From the NCBI RefSeq assembly GCF_000014265.1, contig NC_008312.1, positions 2,370,001 through 2,402,000 on the forward strand: DNA of 32,000 nt. The letters run 5' to 3'. This DNA is from Trichodesmium erythraeum IMS101. Its GTDB lineage: Bacteria > Cyanobacteriota > Cyanobacteriia > Cyanobacteriales > Microcoleaceae. Made by a program: the position numbers and the translations under genes. The notes beneath the pieces were generated by a model that was not told where the DNA came from, did not search any database, and saw only the letters and a list, made by a program, of their open reading frames with translations. Shown here one piece after another: positions 4,239-32,000 of the stretch (its first letter is position 1; every line of letters begins with the position of its first letter).

Positions 4239-5345
4239 TTATTCAAGAAATATAAAAGACGCAAACAAATCTTCAACAGCTTTCAGTAATTGAGTTTGAT
4301 TCCAATTTCTATATAAATGAGCAGTGATCGCGCAGCCTCCACAGCCAACTCCTTCCTTAACATATCCCCTTTCATAAGCTTGTAGTTGAGGATAACAAGA
4401 CTCATCAAAATGAAGTTGTGTTGCCATTAAAGGTACACAACCAATCTCTTGTGCTAACCCAACGGTGTCTCCCGTGGGATCTTCAGCAACCCAACGAGTT
4501 GTTCCCACCACAATATTCTCAGGTCTCCAAAGTAAAGATAACTTTTCTGCCAATACTTGCATTAAAGCATAAACAGCCAGCATTTGCGTTCCACCAGCTA
4601 ACATTACCCCCACCTTGAGACTTGCTGCCATTCCCATTCCTGCTACTACTATTTGCATCGGGTCTCCAACTGCAGCGACTAGTTTTAGAGGTTCTGACAC
4701 TGGAAGCGCCGAATGAAAGCCAGCCTCCTGTAAACCCTGATGTACTACAGCCAATTTTTGATCATGATTACATTGAGGATGACTGCTATTTACTTTACCA
4801 ATAGCGCCAATACCCAAACCTAATAAAACTGCTAAAGCGGTAGTTGTTCCTCCAACTACACATTCTCCTAAAATCACATAGCTATCTTTTGCTTCATCAG
4901 CTAACTTCCGACCCCAATAACTACCTACTTCTAGTAAATGTTGAATTGTTGCCAGATCTAAAGCATGACCAGAAGTTAAACAACGAGCAGGAGCGCCTCC
5001 CAAATCAATTGTTGGAACAGTTGGTTTATGGTATAAGCCAGCATTAAATAAATAAAGAGGAATATTGAGAGTATCAATAATTGCTTTTGTGATTAAGACT
5101 GGGGAAGCACCAGCCTCAAGGGGAGGTAATGGATATTGGGGTTGTAGTTGTAGACCGTTATATAAAAATTCTATATCTGCTAAACAAGTATATTGGCGGT
5201 CTTGTGGCGTTGCTCCTGCTGCCGAAATTCCTGGAATTAGACCTGTATCTGTAAATCCTAAAATACAACCAAAAATTGGTTTGTAGCCTTGATACCTTTG
5301 GAGCCAATTTTTTCCCTGTTGTCTCTGGGTATAAACACGAATCAT
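4239..5345 (-). CDS. CobT-like nicotinate-nucleotide--dimethylbenzimidazole phosphoribosyltransferase family protein (UPF0284/TIGR00303 type)
   Basis: 368-aa ORF. The N-terminus IFGCILGFTDTGLIPGISAAGATPQDRQYT and the core ILGECVVGGTTTALAVLLGLG / VAAVGDPMQ / MLAGGTQM match my memory of the cyanobacterial/archaeal CobT-like UPF0284 family. Confidence 0.8.
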   Translation of the reverse strand: MIRVYTQRQQGKNWLQRYQGYKPIFGCILGFTDTGLIPGISAAGATPQDRQYTCLADIEFLYNGLQLQPQYPLPPLEAGASPVLITKAIIDTLNIPLYLFNAGLYHKPTVPTIDLGGAPARCLTSGHALDLATIQHLLEVGSYWGRKLADEAKDSYVILGECVVGGTTTALAVLLGLGIGAIGKVNSSHPQCNHDQKLAVVHQGLQEAGFHSALPVSEPLKLVAAVGDPMQIVVAGMGMAASLKVGVMLAGGTQMLAVYALMQVLAEKLSLLWRPENIVVGTTRWVAEDPTGDTVGLAQEIGCVPLMATQLHFDESCYPQLQAYERGYVKEGVGCGGCAITAHLYRNWNQTQLLKAVEDLFASFIFLE

Positions 5346-5503
5346 GATTGGATAATGGGTGATAGTTCAATTGATAAAGAAAGTAATAAGTCAGGAAAAA
5401 GGAAGGGTTTAAGCTAGGAAATTATTGACAGCACTTTTGAGGATAGTCAGGTAAAGTTTCAAACTCACTTTATATTCCGTGTTTTCTATTTCCTATTTTT
5501 TAA

Positions 5504-6163
5504 CTAATCATAATCCAGCAATTTTTTTATCCATTTAGGAGGTCTAGGAATAGAGTTTCCGATCCTATCTAGTAATAATAAAGCTACTAAATGTACAACG
5601 GATAAGTAGATAACATTGTTTATAAAAATCAGGATTAAAGCTATCAGTTGAACTAATAGTAAATTGGGTTGATTTAATAATCCTAATTTGACAAATACCC
5701 ATTCTACTAATTCTGTAGCTTGTGTAATTAAGTAGATCCAAAGGTCTTGCCCTAACAAAATTGAAAGTAACCAAAATCTAAAAAAGAAACCTATAGAGCC
5801 AAGTAGAGAACCATAAGTAATAGAAACGAACCAACTTTTGCCTCGCCTCCATAATGCTCCCAACATTACTCCCATCAAAGCAAAAGGAATTACAAATAAG
5901 ATGCTGCGAGTTGGCCCCATTAGTATAGATAACAGTAATCCCGATACTATTGCGCCCATCCAAGATGCACGGCTCCCCCAGCGCAAGTAAAGTAAAGCAG
6001 TGGGTATGGGGAAAAAAATCTTTAATAAAGGCCCTACTGGAAAATAATAGTTGATAAACCAAATCAAGCTGGCGGTACTGGCCAGAAAAGCTGTTTCTAC
6101 TAGAATTAAAGGTTGATCTTCTCTGCTGCTTGATGGTTGTTTTTGATCTGAAGTTGTTTTCAC
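5504..6163 (-). CDS. Polytopic inner-membrane protein, DUF2232-like
   Basis: 219-aa ORF with about 5-6 hydrophobic helices. The conserved-looking N-terminal block LVETAFLASTASLIWFINYYFPVGPLLKIFFPIPTALLYLRWG resembles cyanobacterial DUF2232 proteins. It has the same orientation as, and is tightly spaced with, the flanking crp-family and cobT-like genes. Confidence 0.6.
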   Translation of the reverse strand: MKTTSDQKQPSSSREDQPLILVETAFLASTASLIWFINYYFPVGPLLKIFFPIPTALLYLRWGSRASWMGAIVSGLLLSILMGPTRSILFVIPFALMGVMLGALWRRGKSWFVSITYGSLLGSIGFFFRFWLLSILLGQDLWIYLITQATELVEWVFVKLGLLNQPNLLLVQLIALILIFINNVIYLSVVHLVALLLLDRIGNSIPRPPKWIKKLLDYD

Positions 6164-6164
6164 T

Positions 6165-6199
6165 GATTTGGTTTTGGGTTTTGGCTTTTAACTTTTAAA
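6165..6199. repeat. Degenerate heptamer run (GATTTGG TTTTGGG TTTTGGC TTTTAAC TTTTAAA)
   Basis: Read directly. It fills the 31-bp gap between the Crp-family stop codon (6195..6197) and the start of the membrane-protein gene (6163), and overlaps the stop codon. Confidence 0.5.
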
Positions 6200-6899
6200 C
6201 AAGTGTACGTTCTAAAGCGTGGAGGTCAGGAATACATAAAATATCGCGCTCGCGTTTAATTAATGACTTTTTCTCCAACTTACTTAAGACTCTAGTTACT
6301 GTTTCTCTGGCCAAACCACTTAAACTACTTAGCTCTCTATGAGGCAAATTAGGAATTTCTATTCCTTGTTGGGAAGGTGTACCTTGGCCTTCTGCTAGAA
6401 AGAGCAAAATATCTGTTACCCTTGCCTGAGCATCTGCTTCTCGTAATCTAAGTCGTCGATTTACTTGTCGTAAACGTCTGGCCATTAATTGAGCTAATCG
6501 GATTCCTGCTATGGGTTCAGTATTAATGAGATAAGCAAAGTCCTGAGCTGGCATATTAGCAATTAAAGTAGGAGCTAGAGTAATTACATCAGTAGAGCGT
6601 GGTATTTCATCTAAAGCTGCCATCTCTCCGAATAATTCTCCTTTGCCTAAAATATTTAGTGTTACTTCTTTACCATCTAAATTATAGGTGCGAATCTTTA
6701 CCCACCCATCTAAAATAAAGTATACTGAAGATCCCCAATCATTTTCCAGTAAGATTACTTGATTCCCTGGATGTTGACGGCTGACCAAGTGAATCACTGC
6801 TTTTTTTAATGCCTTTTCTGGTAAGCTCTCAAAAAATGGTGTGGACAGTATTAGTTGTTTTATATTTGACTGGGGGTTGTGACTGTACCTATCTTCCAT
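6195..6899 (-). CDS. Crp/Fnr-family transcriptional regulator (cNMP-binding domain plus C-terminal HTH)
   Basis: 234-aa ORF. It has a beta-roll cNMP-binding signature (VYFILDGWVKI...GKGELFGEMAAL...RSTDVITL) and a C-terminal HTH (HRELSSLSGLARETVTRVLSKLEKKSLI). It is not NtcA by sequence. Confidence 0.85.
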   Translation of the reverse strand: MEDRYSHNPQSNIKQLILSTPFFESLPEKALKKAVIHLVSRQHPGNQVILLENDWGSSVYFILDGWVKIRTYNLDGKEVTLNILGKGELFGEMAALDEIPRSTDVITLAPTLIANMPAQDFAYLINTEPIAGIRLAQLMARRLRQVNRRLRLREADAQARVTDILLFLAEGQGTPSQQGIEIPNLPHRELSSLSGLARETVTRVLSKLEKKSLIKRERDILCIPDLHALERTLV

Positions 6900-9259: not shown

Positions 9260-11265
9260 GTTCATTAGAAATGGAAGCTGATATAACACTAGATCAGGCA
9301 ACTTTACCATGGTATTTAGGAATTGATTTTGGTACTACTAGTATTTCCGCAGCGTTATTTAATAGGAAAAGTGGGGAAGTTTATCCTATTTATTGGGAGC
9401 TTGTAGATGTTAAACCAGAATTGAATATTCCTGAAATTAATCTAGAATTTACTGTCTCTACAAAAAAAGTTAAAACTGATTTTAGCTCGACTCAAAAAAT
9501 ATATAGGCTACCATCAATTGTTTATATAGCTCAACATCTGGAAATATCTGACAATGATCGAGAGGGAAATATAGAACAAAAATGTTTATTGTTACAAAGT
9601 TTTAAGCAGAGTTTAAAAGCTACTATTCCTTACGTTGTAGTTCAATTTAAAAAACAAAAATTACAGAATAAACTAGAAGAACCTTTTCAAATTTCTCCTA
9701 ATTTTTATGCTTCAACTGCTCATGAACCTGTTTTACAGTGGTCTGAAAAACACCAAGTTCCTCTTAGTTTAGTTAAGCAAGGGTTAGTAACTTTATTAGC
9801 TACCCTTCAACCTCAAGGTAATATCCAAAGTTCTATTTCTCTAATTGAGAAGGATACTCAAACAATAGTTATGACTAATGATTATGTTTGTGGTGCAGTG
9901 GGATTGAATTATGAAGCTTTTGTCTCAGCTTTAGCACAATTAAGGTCTGTAGTTATGGGTTATCCGGCAAGTTGGCCAGAAGCTTATCGCTTTAATCTTC
10001 GGGAAGCAGTTTTAGAAGCAGGTTTGGTGAAAAATGTTACTCAGATAGTTTTGATTGAGGATGCGATCGCTACAGGTTTATCAGAGTTCATTTCAGCAGA
10101 AAAAGATACGAACAATTTCACTACCTCAGGATACAGAAGGGGTGTAATTTTAATTGTGAATGTGGGGGCAACTACGACAGAATTCACTTTGATGAGTTTA
10201 CCAGAAAGTGGGCAAAATTTAACCTACTCTAATTTTCATTGTCATAGTTTTGCTTATGGGGGTCATGCTTTAGACCAAGATATTATTTGTCAATTGTTAT
10301 TACAAGATGACAATGTGGAGAGTTTAGGGAAGAGTCAAGAAAAATCTGGTCGGTTATGGCCACGTCCAGGTTATCCAGATTTGTCAATTAGGTATCAACT
10401 ACGGCAGTGGTTACAAACTTCGCCTTATAGGCAAGAATTATTAGTAACAGCTCATAATTTAAAGTTAATTCTGCCATGGGAAAAAGAGTTCACTGTAAAT
10501 ATAGGCGATCGCATAAAGTACTTACAAGAAACAGACTTGGAAAATAAGGTATTGGAACCTTTTGTTAAGCAATTAAATCAAGAGTTAAATAGTTTTTTAA
10601 TTAAGGTGGGAATATCTCCTGTGGGAATTAACCGGGCTGTTTGTACTGGAGGTGGTGGTTGTTGGGCGACGGTTGCTCGTTGGTTACGTCAAAAATTGCC
10701 TAACGCAATTATTGTACAAGATGTAAAAGCTGAGTCTAAAAATTTAGATTTAGGGCAAAAAAATCACCAGGGGGGGAATAATTATTTATCTCAGGCAGAA
10801 AATATTAAGTTAGCTATTGGTCGAGTTGCTTATGGTTTAGCTATCTTACCTCTCTATCCACAACTTCTAGATATACCTGAGCAACAATACAATGATTATT
10901 TTCTACTTTGGGAGATATTGGAAGTTTTCTCATATTATCCTTTATCTATGAAAGAAGTTTTTCAGTTATTAGAAAAACGCGGCATAAATACTCGTGTTTG
11001 CCAAGAAAAAGTTCAGGCTATTTTAGATGGGAAATTACCTCCTGGTTTAATCCCTTCTGAGGAAGATTTAATGCTATTAAGTGAAGTTTCTCGACAAAAT
11101 TTTTACTATCAAAGTTTAAAGGCAAATCCTCTTTTTGATCAAAAAATTGATAGTAGTAAATATGAGTTAAATTATGAACAAGCTGAATATGTAAGAGAAT
11201 ACTTAAATAAGATAGTAACCAGCAATAAGCAAAAGTTTAAGGAACCTTTTCTCAGGGGGCTTTAG
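9256..11265 (+). CDS. Divergent Hsp70/actin-fold ATPase-like protein (DnaK-like nucleotide-binding domain, unrelated C-terminal region)
   Basis: 669-aa ORF. WYLGIDFGTTSISAA resembles Hsp70 phosphate-1 (GIDLGTTNS). GYPASWPEAYRFNLREAVLEAGL resembles VPAYFNDxQRxATKDAGxIAGL. VILIVNVGATTTEFTL occupies the DLGGGTFD position. AVCTGGGGCW occupies the LVGG(S/M)TR position. An alternative start is the ATG at 9271. Confidence 0.75.
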   Translation: MSSLEMEADITLDQATLPWYLGIDFGTTSISAALFNRKSGEVYPIYWELVDVKPELNIPEINLEFTVSTKKVKTDFSSTQKIYRLPSIVYIAQHLEISDNDREGNIEQKCLLLQSFKQSLKATIPYVVVQFKKQKLQNKLEEPFQISPNFYASTAHEPVLQWSEKHQVPLSLVKQGLVTLLATLQPQGNIQSSISLIEKDTQTIVMTNDYVCGAVGLNYEAFVSALAQLRSVVMGYPASWPEAYRFNLREAVLEAGLVKNVTQIVLIEDAIATGLSEFISAEKDTNNFTTSGYRRGVILIVNVGATTTEFTLMSLPESGQNLTYSNFHCHSFAYGGHALDQDIICQLLLQDDNVESLGKSQEKSGRLWPRPGYPDLSIRYQLRQWLQTSPYRQELLVTAHNLKLILPWEKEFTVNIGDRIKYLQETDLENKVLEPFVKQLNQELNSFLIKVGISPVGINRAVCTGGGGCWATVARWLRQKLPNAIIVQDVKAESKNLDLGQKNHQGGNNYLSQAENIKLAIGRVAYGLAILPLYPQLLDIPEQQYNDYFLLWEILEVFSYYPLSMKEVFQLLEKRGINTRVCQEKVQAILDGKLPPGLIPSEEDLMLLSEVSRQNFYYQSLKANPLFDQKIDSSKYELNYEQAEYVREYLNKIVTSNKQKFKEPFLRGL

Positions 11266-20372: not shown

Positions 20373-20560
20373 TTAAAAGATAGTTTTTTTGTCATTATTA
20401 TGGAGTATAAATATACAGATGATTTCGCGAAAATTATGTGGTGCGGGAAGTTGTCTGAGTGAGCTTACCTTATAAACCTAAAATATTCTGTAATAATCTA
20501 TTATTGAAAAGGATTTCCTGTTGGTGTAGTCTAGCCTCAGCAAATTATCTTATGTTCATT

Positions 20561-20602
20561 TAACTTTTAACTTTTAACTTTTAACTTTTGATTTTTGACT
20601 TT
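20561..20602. repeat. Heptamer tandem repeat (TAACTTT x4, TGATTTT, TGACTTT); reverse complement of the array at 30831..30983
   Basis: Read directly. The last units contain the TTG start (20588..20590) and the first codons of holB. Confidence 0.85.
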
Positions 20603-24048: not shown

Positions 24049-24704
24049 ATAGGTGAAGCGATCGCTCCAAATATTACCTAATTTTGAGAATAGTATGAAA
24101 GCTCTGATTTATATTCTTAAAATAGAATATTTTTCTGTCTTGAATTGCCTACTAATTTGTCGATAAAATTAATCAATATAATACCCAGAAATTTATAATC
24201 ATTAAAAATAAAAATGCTTTATTTCTGCTTCTTCCGTAAGAGATATTCAATAACAATTTCTTAAATCTTATGAAAATAAATATGAGATTTTAGGAGGTAA
24301 TATGGTGATCAACTGCAATCACTAATGCTATAATAAATTTGGAAAAATTTCACAGTTAAGGAAATTATAGGAATCAGGAATGAAATGTAATCAAAAACTC
24401 TAAGATTTTGATATACAAATTCTATTTTCCCCTAACTTGGGACATCATACCCCTAAGATTAAATATGATAGTCTCTTTGGGTAAGTCAGGCTCAAAAATT
24501 ATGGTTGTTAATTACACCGTTTCCGTTTTTATAAGGTACAGCGACGGGGGCAAGATAACTGCACTACATGATTTTCACAAAATACAGCAGTACATCATTT
24601 GCCCGATCCAATGCTGTCATTAAAGCTCAAATATCAAAATATTGAAAAAACTTATCTGACTAGACCTAGATCAAATATTACAGTTTATAGGCGGATTTAT
24701 TTAT

Positions 24705-27167
24705 ATGAAATACACGATAAAGTTTACAATGTTACTAACAACATTAACCCTAGTTAGTTGTGATAAAATACCTTTTATGAACAAACAATTATCACAACCA
24801 GAAAAACTAACTTTTGTTGCTAAAAAATCAGGTACTCCTAAGAATTATAGTGCTTTAAATAGATTAGCACAACAAACTATGGTTGAGATTGTGAGCGAGG
24901 GTTATTTGGTCGGAGATGATAAATATATTCTTAAAGGTTCCGGAGTAATTATTGGTAGAAAAGACTTTGTTTATTATGTGCTAACTGCTAATCATATTTT
25001 TAATATGAATGATATATTTTATGTATTTATTCGCAGTAAAAAGCTAGGGAAAGCAGGAGAAGTGACTGGTTTAAAATTTATCAACCGTTACCCACAAGAA
25101 GATTTAGCTCTGATAGCGTTTGCTAGTTTCACTAATTATAGAGTGATGGAGTTAGGGGATGTGAGTCAGCTAGATGATAATAATCAAGTTTATGTGGCGG
25201 GTTGGCCGGGATATGATAATAGGGAGAATTTTCAGTTTACTCGCGCTAAGGTGACTAACTCACAGATGGGAAATAATTTGACTTATAAACCTATTGAACT
25301 TGAAAATGGTTTATATAAGGGGATGAGTGGGGGAGCAGTTTTGAATGAAGCAGGGCAGTTGGTGGGTATTCACCTGGGGTTGACCAAGGTTGATGAAGAT
25401 AGAGAGGGAGTTTTGATCTCGACTTTTTTGCGGATGGTATCGCCGGAGGTTAAAGACATATTGGAGAGACCCACATTTTTGATAATTCTGCAAGCGTTTG
25501 TTTTGCTATTGTTGGCATGTTTTTTCTTCATAGTTTTTGACCAATATGTTTACCCTTGGAAGAAAATTTGGAAAAAGAAAAAAACATCAGTTGCTATTTT
25601 GCCTCTTCCCACTAGAGAAGATCAGACTATCACAAAATTTTTAATTCAGAATGCTGAAAGTTATTTTAACCAAGGCCTTAAGTATCGAAATCAGAGAAAA
25701 TATGATTTGGCGATCGCTGAGTTTAACCAAGCCATTAAACTTAATCCCAAATATGCTGAAGCTTACTACAACAGGGGTAATGTTTACAATACCCAGGGAA
25801 AATATGATTTGGCGCTCGTTGACTATAACCAAGCCATTAAATTTAATCCCAAATATACTCAAGTGTACAATAACAAGGGTATTATTTACAATAAACAGGG
25901 AAAATATGATTTGGCGCTTGCTGAGTTTAACCAAGCTATTAAACTTAATCCCAAATATTCTAAAGTTTACAATAACAGGGGTATTGTTTACAATAACCAG
26001 AGAAAATATGATTTGGCGATCGCTGAGTTTAACCAAGCCATTAAACTTAATCCCAAATATGCTGAAGCTTACTACAACAGGGGTAATATTTACAATAACC
26101 AGGGAAAATATGATTTGGCGCTTGCTGAGTTTAACCAAGCTATTAAATTTAAGCCTAAATATGCTAAAGCCTACTACAACAGGGGTCTTGTTTACAAGAC
26201 TCAAAGAAATATTGAAAGAGTCATATCAGACTTTGAAAAAGCTGCCAAGTTATACAAAGAACAACAAAATCAAAGGTGGTATCAAAACTCTCTAGATAAA
26301 CTCAAAAAATTACAATATATTTATAGTGAGCAGGAAAAATCAGAAAAAGGACAGGTATTTACTTTTGAAGTTGTAAGACTCAATAATTCTGGTAATATTA
26401 TTAGTCGTACTCAGGGAAGGGCTCAACAAAAAATCGAACACTTGGGTAATGACATTAAATTGGAAATAGTTTATATTCCTGGGGGAAGTTTTCTCATGGG
26501 TTCGCCAACAGAAGAAGTAGGTAGATACAGTGATGAAGGTCCCCAACATAGGGTAACTCTTCAGCCTTTTTATATGAGTAAATACCCTATAACTCAAGAC
26601 CAATATCAAGTCATTATGGGAAATAACCCTTCTAGGTTTAGAGGAGGAAGATGCCCAGTAGAAACAGTAAGCTGGCACGATGCTACAGAGTTTTGTGAAA
26701 AGCTATCTCAGAAAACGGGAAGAGACTATAGACTGCCCAGTGAGAGTCAGTGGGAATATGCCTGTCGTGCAGGAACAACAACACCTTTTTATTTTGGAGA
26801 GACCATAACACCTGACTTCGCTAACTATTATGGCAACTCTTCTTACGGTAATGGTCCTAAAGGAAAATATCGACAACAAACAACATATGTGGGAATTTTT
26901 CCACCTAATGCCTTTGGTTTATATGATATGCACGGGAATGTTTGGGAATGGTGCGCTGATGAATGGCATGACAACTATGATGGTGCCCCTACAGATGGCA
27001 GTGTTTGGCTAGATGGAAATAAAAATCGTTCTCCACTGCGGGGGGGTTCCTGGGTATACTGTCCTTATTATTGCCGTTCTGCGATCCGCAGCCTCTTTCT
27101 TCCGCGTGACGTCCACAACTACGATTTTGGTTTTCGTGTTGTCTGCAATAGCAGGAGAACTTTCTGA
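24705..27167 (+). CDS. Multidomain protein: lipoprotein signal peptide, trypsin-like serine peptidase, one TM helix, 6 TPR repeats, C-terminal FGE-sulfatase (formylglycine-generating-enzyme / C-type-lectin fold) domain
   Basis: 820-aa ORF. Lipobox LTLVSC (Cys19). Trypsin-like triad contexts: VLTANHI (His97), EDLALIAF (Asp133), KGMSGGAVLN (Ser208). TM helix TFLIILQAFVLLLLACFFFIVF (aa 257-278) is followed by WKKIWKKKKT. There are six 34-aa TPRs (aa 317-520). FGE-sulfatase motifs: IPGGSFLMGSP, VSWHDATEFCEKLS, YRLPSESQWEYACRAGT, GLYDMHGNVWEWC, RGGSW, FGFRVVC. Confidence 0.9.
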   Translation: MKYTIKFTMLLTTLTLVSCDKIPFMNKQLSQPEKLTFVAKKSGTPKNYSALNRLAQQTMVEIVSEGYLVGDDKYILKGSGVIIGRKDFVYYVLTANHIFNMNDIFYVFIRSKKLGKAGEVTGLKFINRYPQEDLALIAFASFTNYRVMELGDVSQLDDNNQVYVAGWPGYDNRENFQFTRAKVTNSQMGNNLTYKPIELENGLYKGMSGGAVLNEAGQLVGIHLGLTKVDEDREGVLISTFLRMVSPEVKDILERPTFLIILQAFVLLLLACFFFIVFDQYVYPWKKIWKKKKTSVAILPLPTREDQTITKFLIQNAESYFNQGLKYRNQRKYDLAIAEFNQAIKLNPKYAEAYYNRGNVYNTQGKYDLALVDYNQAIKFNPKYTQVYNNKGIIYNKQGKYDLALAEFNQAIKLNPKYSKVYNNRGIVYNNQRKYDLAIAEFNQAIKLNPKYAEAYYNRGNIYNNQGKYDLALAEFNQAIKFKPKYAKAYYNRGLVYKTQRNIERVISDFEKAAKLYKEQQNQRWYQNSLDKLKKLQYIYSEQEKSEKGQVFTFEVVRLNNSGNIISRTQGRAQQKIEHLGNDIKLEIVYIPGGSFLMGSPTEEVGRYSDEGPQHRVTLQPFYMSKYPITQDQYQVIMGNNPSRFRGGRCPVETVSWHDATEFCEKLSQKTGRDYRLPSESQWEYACRAGTTTPFYFGETITPDFANYYGNSSYGNGPKGKYRQQTTYVGIFPPNAFGLYDMHGNVWEWCADEWHDNYDGAPTDGSVWLDGNKNRSPLRGGSWVYCPYYCRSAIRSLFLPRDVHNYDFGFRVVCNSRRTF
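25653..26264 (+). repeat. Intragenic 102-bp tandem repeats encoding the six TPR units, with long perfectly identical blocks
   Basis: A 90-nt block (cagagaaaatatgatttggcgatcgctgag...caggggtaat) is identical at 25692 and 25998, an offset of 306 = 3x102. A 42-nt block (aaatatgatttggcgcttgctgagtttaaccaagctattaaa) is identical at an offset of 204. Each long copy carries a HIP1 site (25710 and 26016). Confidence 0.9.
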
Positions 27168-27803
27168 CCCTTTTCTATTTTCCCTTTTTGCTCTTTATCC
27201 TGTTTTTCTTCTTCCTTTAATTTCTCGCTTTAGCGGATCGAAATTTTTGAACGCAATGTAGTGTTTATATAAAAAAGTACCACAATATTGATAAGTCTGG
27301 GCTACAACTTCTTGAGTAGGAGAGTAAGAGAGTGAGGGAGTGGATGTGTAGGGAGGTTCTATGGATACTCCCTACTGTAGTCTACTGAAATGAAAACTGC
27401 TGTAGGGGAGGACTCTTTCTCAGGTCAAGGTTAGCCGCCGACTCCCTCCAAAGTTGAGCTACAGAAAACAAACGCCATTTGCCACAACTATAGAAGTTAT
27501 GGGTAAGTCTTGTAATATTTGCCTACTGCTTTATCAAGCTAATACAAAGCTTCATATAGCTTGACAAATTAATGTTTACTTCCAGCTTCTACTGAAGCTG
27601 TCGGCAGTTACTCATCCACAGGTATTTATAGGTCTTGCCCGACCGCATTTCTTAAATTAATACTTATATTTAGATCGCGGTCTATAGATATCCCAAAATT
27701 TCTCTAGGTTTGACAAATTTCACCACATTATTATTTGATACAACTAACTCATGATATCGCTTTATCAGGTAAATTCTCAACTAAGTCAATTTTCCTGACT
27801 CCC

Positions 27804-30650: not shown

Positions 30651-30830
30651 TTTTATTGGATAATTTTTGAGCAGGTATCTCTATTTTATTATTTAGCAAA
30701 AAAACATAGTTGAAAGGAAATAAATTCACATAACAATATTCAAAAAAAAGAATCTACTTAGGATGTGCTTTCTAAATCTTTTTAAGAACTAGGAGACCCA
30801 AACCTAAACCCCTTATACCATTTCACCTAA

Positions 30831-30983
30831 GTCAAAAGTCAAAAGTTAAAAGTTAAAAGTTAAAAGTTAAAAGTTAAAAGTTAAAGTTTAAAAGTTAAAA
30901 GTTAAAGTTTAAAAGTTAAAAGTTAAAAGTTAAAAGTTAAAAGTTAAAGTTTAAAAGTTAAAGTTTAAAAGTTAAAGGTTAGG
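30831..30983. repeat. Heptanucleotide microsatellite, about 22 units of GTTAAAA (= AAAAGTT), with four GTTAAA+GTTTAAAA variant pairs; STRR-like
   Basis: Parsed unit by unit: gtcaaaa x2, gttaaaa x5, gttaaa gtttaaaa, gttaaaa, gttaaa gtttaaaa, gttaaaa x4, gttaaa gtttaaaa, gttaaa gtttaaaa, gttaaag, gttagg. It lies about 180 nt upstream of the dprA-like start (minus strand). Confidence 0.95.
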
Positions 30984-30995
30984 TTTTTCCGGCAT

Positions 30996-31050
30996 AAAAC
31001 TTTGACCCTACAGTAATTTTAGGAAATTATTTGATATCTAAAGTTTTAAA
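30996..31050 (+). repeat. Probable third, more diverged copy (C) of the dispersed repeat family
   Basis: aaaactttgaccctacagtaattttaggaaattatttgatatctaaagttttaaac shares the blocks aaaactttga, gtaattt, aaattattt and ctaaag/tttaaa with copies A and B. It lacks the 5' palindrome. Confidence 0.4.
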
Positions 31051-31791
31051 CTATTTATAATATTATTTATGACATTATTTTTGACCCTTAGTGTTATAAG
31101 AGTAATTTTTTAACAAAGGGGTAAGTAATCACTATTATTCAGTATAAAATATCAACAAAAGTATATTTGATTTTATACAATAACATAGCTAAAAATTTCT
31201 TCTAGCCTTCATCCATTCATCTTCTCAAATTTTTTTATCAACTTTAATATCAAAGATAAAAAATATACCCTTATAAGTCTCTAACCCCTTCTAAGAAAAA
31301 AAAGAAAGTAAGTAAGTAGAAAAGTTATATTAAACTGACTTAAGTTTGAACATATAATTTATAGAAGAATTAGTTGGATATATTTATGCCTAAAACTTTC
31401 TGCTATAGTTATCAAAAAAATACTAATACTAATTTAATAAACATCTATCATACTAATTTTTTTTGAAGTCAGACTACACATACCTTAACATTTTAGTTTT
31501 TAGACTTACAGCTAATTTTGGACAAATGATGTACAGGGTCAATAGTAAAAATCATGTAATGCAGGTATCTTACCCACGTAGGCGTACCTCATAAACCTCA
31601 AATATGCTGTAATAAATTACTCTTACAAATTTTGTTTAAGTTAATCAAATTTATATTGCACTTTCTTAACTAGAGAAGCACAGGAGTAGGTAGAGACCTT
31701 ACATAAAACCTCCCTAAAACATTTATACAATTAACACGCTTTTGAAATACTAATTATCAAAAAAAACTATTGGTACAATATTAATTACTAA

Positions 31792-32000
31792 ATAATTAAA
31801 ATTTTATCCAAGAATAACATTTTTTTTTAAATTGGCATCAAACTGGTTATTCTCCATACCGAAAACCAGACACTTTTTCCATCAAAAAAATACTCAAGCC
31901 TTTATAGCTTAATACCTTAATATTTTATGCATTCAACATAATTAAAATTTTATCCAAGAATAACATTTTTTTTTAAATTGGCATCAAACTGGTTATTCTC
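31792..32000. repeat. Direct repeat with 146-bp period; a 63-bp block is perfectly duplicated and the second copy is cut by the window end
   Basis: ataattaaaattttatccaagaataacatttttttttaaattggcatcaaactggttattctc occurs at 31792..31854 and again at 31938..32000. Each copy contains an 8-bp inverted repeat, AGAATAAC ... GTTATTCT. Confidence 0.85.

Follow-up and report, generated by a model that had tools for sequence, protein, structure and literature searches.

A probable fossil variable region, of a third diversity-generating retroelement class, at the C-terminus of Tery_1568 in Trichodesmium erythraeum IMS101

The window analysed here, a stretch of 32,000 nucleotides from the genome of Trichodesmium erythraeum IMS101, carries on its forward strand an open reading frame (ORF) of 820 amino acids at 24705..27167, whose 3' end at 27036..27149 resembles a variable region of the kind written by a diversity-generating retroelement (DGR). 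An exact look-up of the protein taken from the ORF list returned ABG50848.1 / UniRef100_Q115H6 of IMS101; the copy in strain GBRTRLIN201 is identical, and the ENA contig L017 equals the window at 100% identity across 5.5 kb. Paul and Eren (2022) list, in Table S2 of PMC8867640, RVP_2394704 at 2394704-2397167 (+), a DUF323 gene, as Tery_1568. Because the length and offset of this entry agree with the ORF, given a window start at about 2,370,001 of CP000393, we infer from coordinates and accession order that the gene at 24705..27167 is Tery_1568. The protein proceeds from a lipobox-like signal through a Trypsin_2 domain (residues 78-222), one transmembrane helix and six TPR units (residues ~317-520) to an FGE-sulfatase (C-type-lectin-like) domain (PF03781, residues 587-813, E=2e-54), encoded on the + strand at 26463..27143; the Trypsin_2, TPR and FGE-sulfatase parts are Pfam matches. 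The N-terminus (MKYTIKFTMLLTTLTLVSC) resembles a lipoprotein signal, and near residues 255-278 the chain is hydrophobic, with KKIWKKKK coming after. Read from the sequence alone, this suggests a predicted topology in which the protease would be periplasmic and the TPR-lectin part cytoplasmic. The variable-region-like segment (27036..27149, +) lies within the last 40 codons of the ORF, is depleted in A and rich in NNY codons (Y, pyrimidine), and encodes LRGGSW VYC P YY CRSA I R SLFL P RD V H NYDF GFRVVC. It thus lies where a DGR target is found, at the 3' end of an ORF and on a C-type-lectin/FGE fold (PF03781 587-813 of 820).

The initial annotation of this DNA had drawn attention to the scarcity of A in the segment, and the count bears it out: 27039..27146 contains 12 A, 39 T, 29 C and 28 G per 108 nt, where A makes up 34.6% of the whole window and 33.6% of the Tery_1568 gene. 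Only 4 of ~31,900 sliding 108-nt windows hold 12 A or fewer, every one of them starting within 27036-27039, and this is the lowest count in the 32 kb; on the opposite strand, the sliding scan of the 32 kb found no 108-nt window that is equally T-poor. The codons themselves read as the annotation had listed them. In the 25-codon block at 27054..27128, 22 of 25 codons are NNY and the single codon ending in A is GTA, while Tery_1568 overall has 55% NNY codons and 27.6% ending in A; at least 22 NNY codons are reached by 13 of the 796 25-codon blocks of the gene, with the maximum at the 27054..27128 site. Repeat and domain searches inside the 32-kb window detected no reverse transcriptase (RT), no repeat resembling a template repeat (TR) and no second FGE domain, in agreement with the annotation's statement that neither RT nor TR is present there.

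A search with the FGE domain returned proteins from Trichodesmium, Okeania and other cyanobacteria. Approximately 100 Trichodesmium and Okeania homologs have RGGSWxxxPxxCRSAxRxxxx(R)RDxHxxxxGFRVVC in common and differ from one another at the x positions. Among proteins of solved structure, the sequence of the domain matches PvdO (5hha, 1.8e-46), the DGR variable protein TvpA of Treponema denticola (2y3c, 6e-24) and FGEs (~1e-21); the resemblance to catalytic FGE (SUMF1/FGE) consists in this sequence similarity of ~1e-21 to the solved FGEs. The variable region of TvpA aligns across the segment, residue for residue, as LRGGSW...C....R.....GFR..C, and the two proteins belong to the same fold family, but TvpA, a small lipoprotein, lacks the protease and TPR domains, and its cognate TR and RT adjoin it. 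Because the family motif is shared and the TvpA variable region aligns, we assign 27036..27149, by homology, as a DGR-type variable-region scaffold. Tery_1568 also has the make-up of the CLec/DUF323 variable-protein homologs, i.e. a C-terminal CLec/FGE domain fused to a protease module in a DGR-bearing genome, and ABG50848.1 is indeed entered as a 'CLec & Trp Ser-Protease' paralog, without the flag of a remote variable protein, by Vallota-Eastman (2020; PMC7517822 Table S3). The likeness to a DGR variable region that the initial annotation saw is therefore sound as regards composition, codon pattern, position and the scaffold motif on an FGE/C-type-lectin fold; it does not extend to the segment being a target today.

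Two DGRs have been described in IMS101, which together have 12-18 dispersed targets, the RT of DGR1 being Tery_1035 and that of DGR2 being Tery_1728/1729, a pseudogene in IMS101 (PMC4143802; PMC7517822; PMC8867640). By published annotation the genome thus has two DGR RTs, one of them pseudogenised, and the general claim that the DGRs of IMS101 act on many remote multidomain targets is upheld by the literature (PMC4143802; PMC8867640). The further proposal, that this gene is a live remote target, is not supported by the tests made: neither published template matches with mismatches confined to A, the 3' homing stretch is unshared, the genome and metagenome scans turned up no template with this scaffold, and the segment is invariant. 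As a cognate template we accepted a repeat in the same genome with almost all mismatches (>80-90%) at template adenines, and the TR1 and TR2 sequences were taken from Table S1 of PMC8867640. The segment is 60.5% identical to TR2, with 47 mismatches, of which 18 lie at template A (38%) and 29 at non-A; with TR1 the identity is 54%, and of 64 mismatches 26 lie at template A (41%) and 38 at non-A, in an alignment that needs gaps. As a positive control, the bAvd-RT-TR cassette L011 of Trichodesmium sp. MAG_R01 gave 9 of 10 mismatches between TR and variable region at A. Since the alignment to TR2 loses similarity soon after GGTTTTCGT and that to TR1 is gapped, the 3' homing stretch of the segment (initiation of mutagenic homing sequence, IMH, or 35-bp conserved stretch) is common to neither TR. 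Pfreundt et al. considered this 3' conserved stretch necessary for homing (PMC4143802). The 'TR2 homology' given for the gene in Table S2 of PMC8867640 was accordingly considered and rejected, as neither the mismatch spectrum nor the 3' end fits a TR2 target.

Judged by its sequence, the segment is better assigned to a third class, 'A' (scaffold ...GFRVVCDGGRTL), which is common among Trichodesmium metagenome proteins. The scaffold of the TR1 class ends in ...GFRVISSSPVVS and that of the TR2 class in ...GFRLVSFPP, and both are unlike class A in scaffold and in 3' homing sequence. A hypothetical class-A template, translated in antisense and used as the query, led to four 76-aa ORFs, which are antisense reads of class-A variable regions and not the template. 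Three of the contigs that bear them (L014, L015 and L016, from three ENA assemblies, at least one of them from Tara Oceans) carry one locus with the variable region on the reverse strand: the variable-region gene ends, a GC hairpin with a 6-bp stem and a T-run follows, and a bAvd-like gene then begins (MTELSVIQKNHDLIKYYVQIIERFPKVHKF). These three variable regions and those of L012 and L013a have a single scaffold in common, and the differences among them across the variable codons fall at 27 sites, every one a first or second position in one of 17 codons. Such restricted differences are the signature of an active DGR at the class-A cassette locus and illustrate how hypervariability appears in public assemblies of a comparable kind; L014, L015 and L016 indicate a putative third, active Trichodesmium-like DGR, in addition to the two known from IMS101. 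The class-A template was reconstructed from the five variable regions, the template and RT of the class-A locus not having been recovered. Compared with the common class-A scaffold, the window copy has another base at 15 of the 106 non-A sites; 7 of these 15 differences are common to the pseudogene L013b, and three of the others are G>A changes within the GC-rich 3' element (GATGGCGGG -> AATAGCAGG).

These relationships bear on the suggestion that the pattern is unrelated to DGRs, and that an ordinary composition or codon-usage constraint on the C-termini of FGE-fold proteins produced a coincidental resemblance. It is true that non-DGR proteins of the fold (PvdO 5hha and true FGEs) align at this place with a related motif, RG..W....... 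R...R ....GFR. Coincidence is nevertheless hardly credible when homologs vary exactly where the class-A locus varies and keep the scaffold, when the class-A differences are confined to codon positions 1-2 of 17 codons at a locus adjoining a bAvd-like gene, when no other part of the 32 kb is as poor in A, and when bona fide TRs of the sister classes have AAY at the homologous codons.

A partner for the class-A scaffold was sought in several collections. The genome scan covered one genome per GTDB species and used 23 A-free scaffold bases (pattern CCTN6TGCCGTTCTGCGN3CGCN14GCGT), the window itself being presumed masked; it gave no Trichodesmium match, the matches being one Okeania variable-region-like gene and two unrelated sequences. 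A TR-shaped pattern run on JGI metagenomes, which demanded CGT for CGC and is blind to class A, yielded only the TR and cassette of a different class, C (L008-L010), and a scan of viral contigs for a class-A template yielded no match. No RT or TR was found nearby on the contigs of the class-A homologs L007, L012 and L013, and no class-A template or cassette in T. erythraeum IMS101 is reported in the two published surveys or emerged from the scans that we made. A search for RT homologs led to the MAG_R01 cassette L011, which comprises a kinase-FGE gene, a variable-region gene, bAvd, RT and TR; its TR was rejected as the cognate of the segment, as it is of class B, equivalent to TR1 of IMS101. 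Hence neither TR1 nor TR2 matches the segment with mismatches confined to A, the scaffold scans offered no other candidate, and on this basis the scaffold of the segment appears to have no detectable template partner.

Two of these cassettes have features of their own. In L011, the kinase-FGE gene (4735-6576) compared with the TR (11080-11229) has 12 non-A mismatches, with 54% of mismatches at A, and the variable-region gene directly upstream of bAvd has 90% of its mismatches at A, so that decayed and intact targets adjoin. In L009, which comes from another cyanobacterium and has a class-C TR, the RT frame at 817-2183 is split and the YxDD region is not visible; an ORF of 121 aa (1539-1904) lies between the N-terminal 227-aa and C-terminal 91-aa parts of the RT.

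The segment shows none of the variability of an active target. IMS101, GBRTRLIN201 and the ALOHA_ZT_67 metagenome-assembled genome all encode the same peptide here, VYCPYYCRSAIRSLFLPRDVHNYDF, and the variable region is invariant in at least 11 protein variants (P0289, P0290, P0292, P0294, P0295, P0297, P0298, P0301, P0302, P0001, P0121, P0122) and across more than 20 contigs, as well as in strains from different oceans. In this set P0289 stands for IMS101 and the Great Barrier Reef strain GBRTRLIN201, P0292 for ALOHA_ZT_67, and Tara/ENA assemblies are included. Four full-length variants compared with IMS101 are polymorphic at residues 40, 199, 239, 244, 251, 260, 279, 360, 538 and 559 (n=10), all outside the variable region, and the contigs L004 and L005, which are 99.3-99.7% identical to the window, have single-nucleotide polymorphisms at 26954 and 27277 and none in 27036-27200. 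The segment is thus no more variable than the rest of the gene and is invariant in strains and populations alike, and Paul and Eren (2022; PMC8867640 Table S2) had scored Tery_1568 'Hypervariable: no' by read recruitment. Fixed variable regions also occur in other class-A-like genes, in the clusters of P0004, P0007/P0012 and P0011.

It could still be argued that the segment is a live remote target, rewritten in trans by TR2 or by an undetected template too rarely or too episodically for the sampled assemblies to record. The IMS101 DGRs do reach 12-18 dispersed targets (PMC4143802; PMC8867640 Table S2), Paul and Eren assigned 'TR2 homology' to this very gene (PMC8867640), its variable region retains the full scaffold and an intact reading frame, and consensus assemblies can conceal minority variants. 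We regard such rewriting as very unlikely. Only 38% of the TR2 mismatches are at template adenines, 29 are at non-A and the 3' homing stretch is unshared; the DGR2 RT is a pseudogene in IMS101 (PMC4143802); and read recruitment classed the gene as not hypervariable (PMC8867640). The variable region is the same in strains from several oceans and in more than 20 contigs, in contrast to the class-A cassette copy, which differs in each of three contigs, and to the four antisense ORFs, all of which differ.

The 3' gene end and a conserved pyrimidine-rich 3' untranslated region (UTR) occupy 27144..27200 (+; TGC AAT AGC AGG AGA ACT TTC TGA CCCTTTTCTATTTTCCC...), a stretch that corresponds to the one conserved downstream of class-A variable regions (TGCGATGGCGGGAGA.CTCTTTAACCCTTTTCTCTTTTCCCC). 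Relative to the class-A consensus, the GC-rich 3' element carries the three G>A changes and four further ones (positions 112, 115, 118, 124, 127, 129, 131). Farther on, at 27213..27235 (+), folding shows a weak remnant (CTCGCTTTAGCGGATCGAAATTTTT) of a GC hairpin with a T-run, which folds at -3.9 kcal/mol and does not surpass shuffled sequences (z = -0.57); greater stability is seen in the 6-bp GC stems that follow L014/L015 (-6.6 kcal/mol) and the L009 cassette (-7.3, z = -3.0). The requirement for a downstream hairpin is established only for systems of the BPP-1 type. The class-A cassette of L014/L015/L016 comes nearest to the window segment in scaffold, 3' UTR element and hairpin position, but it changes between samples only at predicted adenine sites and has a bAvd-like gene adjoining it; in the window copy, by comparison, the scaffold is substituted at 15 sites, the GC-rich 3' element is degraded, the hairpin is weak and variation is absent. 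As a separate observation, the cassette hairpin, ~95-110 nt past the variable-region stop, is inverted between samples: L014/L016 have CCCGCTCCGCGGG and L015 has CCCGCGGAGCGGG, its exact reverse complement, so that the stem is kept and the loop flipped.

Diversity at this locus might instead have come about by recombination or gene conversion among paralogous lectin domains, and not through a DGR. The contig L006 (ERZ17095334) is 99.3% identical to the window up to ~26584, ~10 kb upstream included, after which it diverges progressively until homology ends at 27187. Over L006 10560-12100, aligned with window 26573-27187, it has a diverged 3' half of the domain (83% identity), another variable region (FSSSNACRSTYRLNIGRRDIHSFNI) and unrelated downstream DNA, and the variant domain is joined to the same TPR region in several independent assemblies (P0002 cluster). 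The same L006 pattern would, however, be given by an assembler chimera between paralogs: L006 ends 945 bp past the gene, and its tail is made up of repeats that also occur close to other FGE genes. Only two forms are seen, moreover, each with its own invariant variable region. We therefore hold an origin by recombination to be unlikely.

We interpret the segment at 27036..27149 as the fossil of a class-A DGR variable region, 'frozen' and orphaned, a reading to which we give a probability of about 0.8. Past mutagenic retrohoming from an AAY-rich class-A template would have written the last ~25 codons in the Trichodesmium lineage, leaving invariant A-free scaffold codons amid randomised NNY codons. 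The low A count and the NNY bias would follow because the scaffold codons are A-free, the template avoiding A at those codons, and the remaining codons are randomised derivatives of AAY. Ordinary point substitutions would afterwards have accumulated at non-A scaffold sites and in the GC-rich 3' element, and every sampled T. erythraeum now carries the same fixed sequence, which may serve as the fixed ligand-binding face of a putatively membrane-anchored Trypsin-TPR-lectin protein. We can go further only tentatively, at somewhat less than even odds, in proposing that a third DGR lineage, class A, is active in other wild Trichodesmium-like populations and has been lost from T. erythraeum, with Tery_1568 as a fossil kept for a fixed sensor specificity.

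Several points weigh against the fossil reading. As ~1% of residues are polymorphic, zero changes in ~37 residues are expected by chance; the invariance argues against hypermutation without proving purifying selection, and purifying selection on the variable region, which we had considered, was rejected as unproven for the same count. The perfect fit of the five variable regions to the class-A template is circular, because the template was built from them. The seven scaffold differences shared with L013b may reflect an older template variant and not decay. Finally, the absence of a third TR from IMS101 rests on the genome scan and the two published surveys, as IMS101 was assumed, not verified, to be the T. 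erythraeum representative in that scan, and the metagenome pattern was blind to class-A templates by demanding CGT where class A has CGC.

The fossil reading places Tery_1568 beside the known remote variable proteins and variable-protein homologs of the IMS101 DGRs, with which it has in common the genome, a DUF323/FGE C-type-lectin domain, a C-terminal variable region, a multidomain architecture and a position far from the RT. It differs from them in a scaffold and 3' stretch that match neither TR1 nor TR2, and falls in the non-hypervariable subset. A distant point of reference is Mtd/Brt of the Bordetella phage BPP-1, where mutagenesis is adenine-specific, the variable region is C-terminal on a C-type-lectin fold, and a 3' IMH and a downstream hairpin are needed. 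The features of the BPP-1 DGR are summarised in PMC4143802 and PMC7517822. The window segment resembles it in having a C-terminal variable region on a C-type-lectin fold; unlike the window gene, BPP-1 diversifies a phage tail-fibre protein from a cis cassette, with a lectin fold of the Mtd type and not the FGE type, and the window element is without every active component. For the non-hypervariable variable regions of IMS101, Pfreundt et al. (2014; PMC4143802) reported that mutations had struck non-A sites and the 3' conserved stretch, after which diversification was lost. Tery_1568 itself is already known, being catalogued in two published DGR surveys of IMS101, and its non-hypervariable status has been reported. 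Our addition is a modest one, namely that the segment is assigned to a third class of variable regions, of which one copy proves hypervariable when three ENA assemblies are compared; it is because of this assignment that Tery_1568 is viewed as an orphan relic and not as a weak target of TR2.

Other features of the locus were recorded alongside. The TPR units of Tery_1568 are encoded by 102-nt tandem repeats at 25587..26311 (+), identified by repeat search and by Pfam TPR matches. Related assemblies give forms of 718, 812 and 820 aa as well as split gene calls of 327 + 384 aa, which suggests variation in TPR repeat number or assembly errors induced by the repeats. Elsewhere in the window, heptanucleotides are repeated in tandem, (AAAAGTT/AAAGTTT)n, over 30806-31009, and 44 nt of the same repeat recur in inverted orientation ~10 kb off, at 20559-20602; the array is reminiscent of the short tandemly repeated sequences known from filamentous cyanobacteria. 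At the end of the window, 63 nt are repeated perfectly in direct orientation, at 31792-31854 and 31938-32000 (146 nt apart), and a 51-nt inverted repeat (82% complementary) at 24528-24578 and 31545-31595 flanks a region that begins just upstream of Tery_1568 and reaches beyond a DprA-like gene.

An A-depleted, NNY-rich C-terminus on an FGE/C-type-lectin fold, as found in Tery_1568, would therefore be a sign of past and not of ongoing DGR writing, and before a gene is called a DGR target, a template, a homing sequence in common with it and variability are all needed. In addition to the two DGR classes of IMS101, variable regions of a third class appear to occur in Trichodesmium, some of them hypervariable in the ocean and others fixed relics. 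If this is true, the class-A relics with invariant variable regions (Tery_1568, ABG53529.1-like and P0011-like) could be used to date the loss of the DGR, and would allow the evolution of sensors by a process of 'diversify, then fix' to be tested in natural populations.

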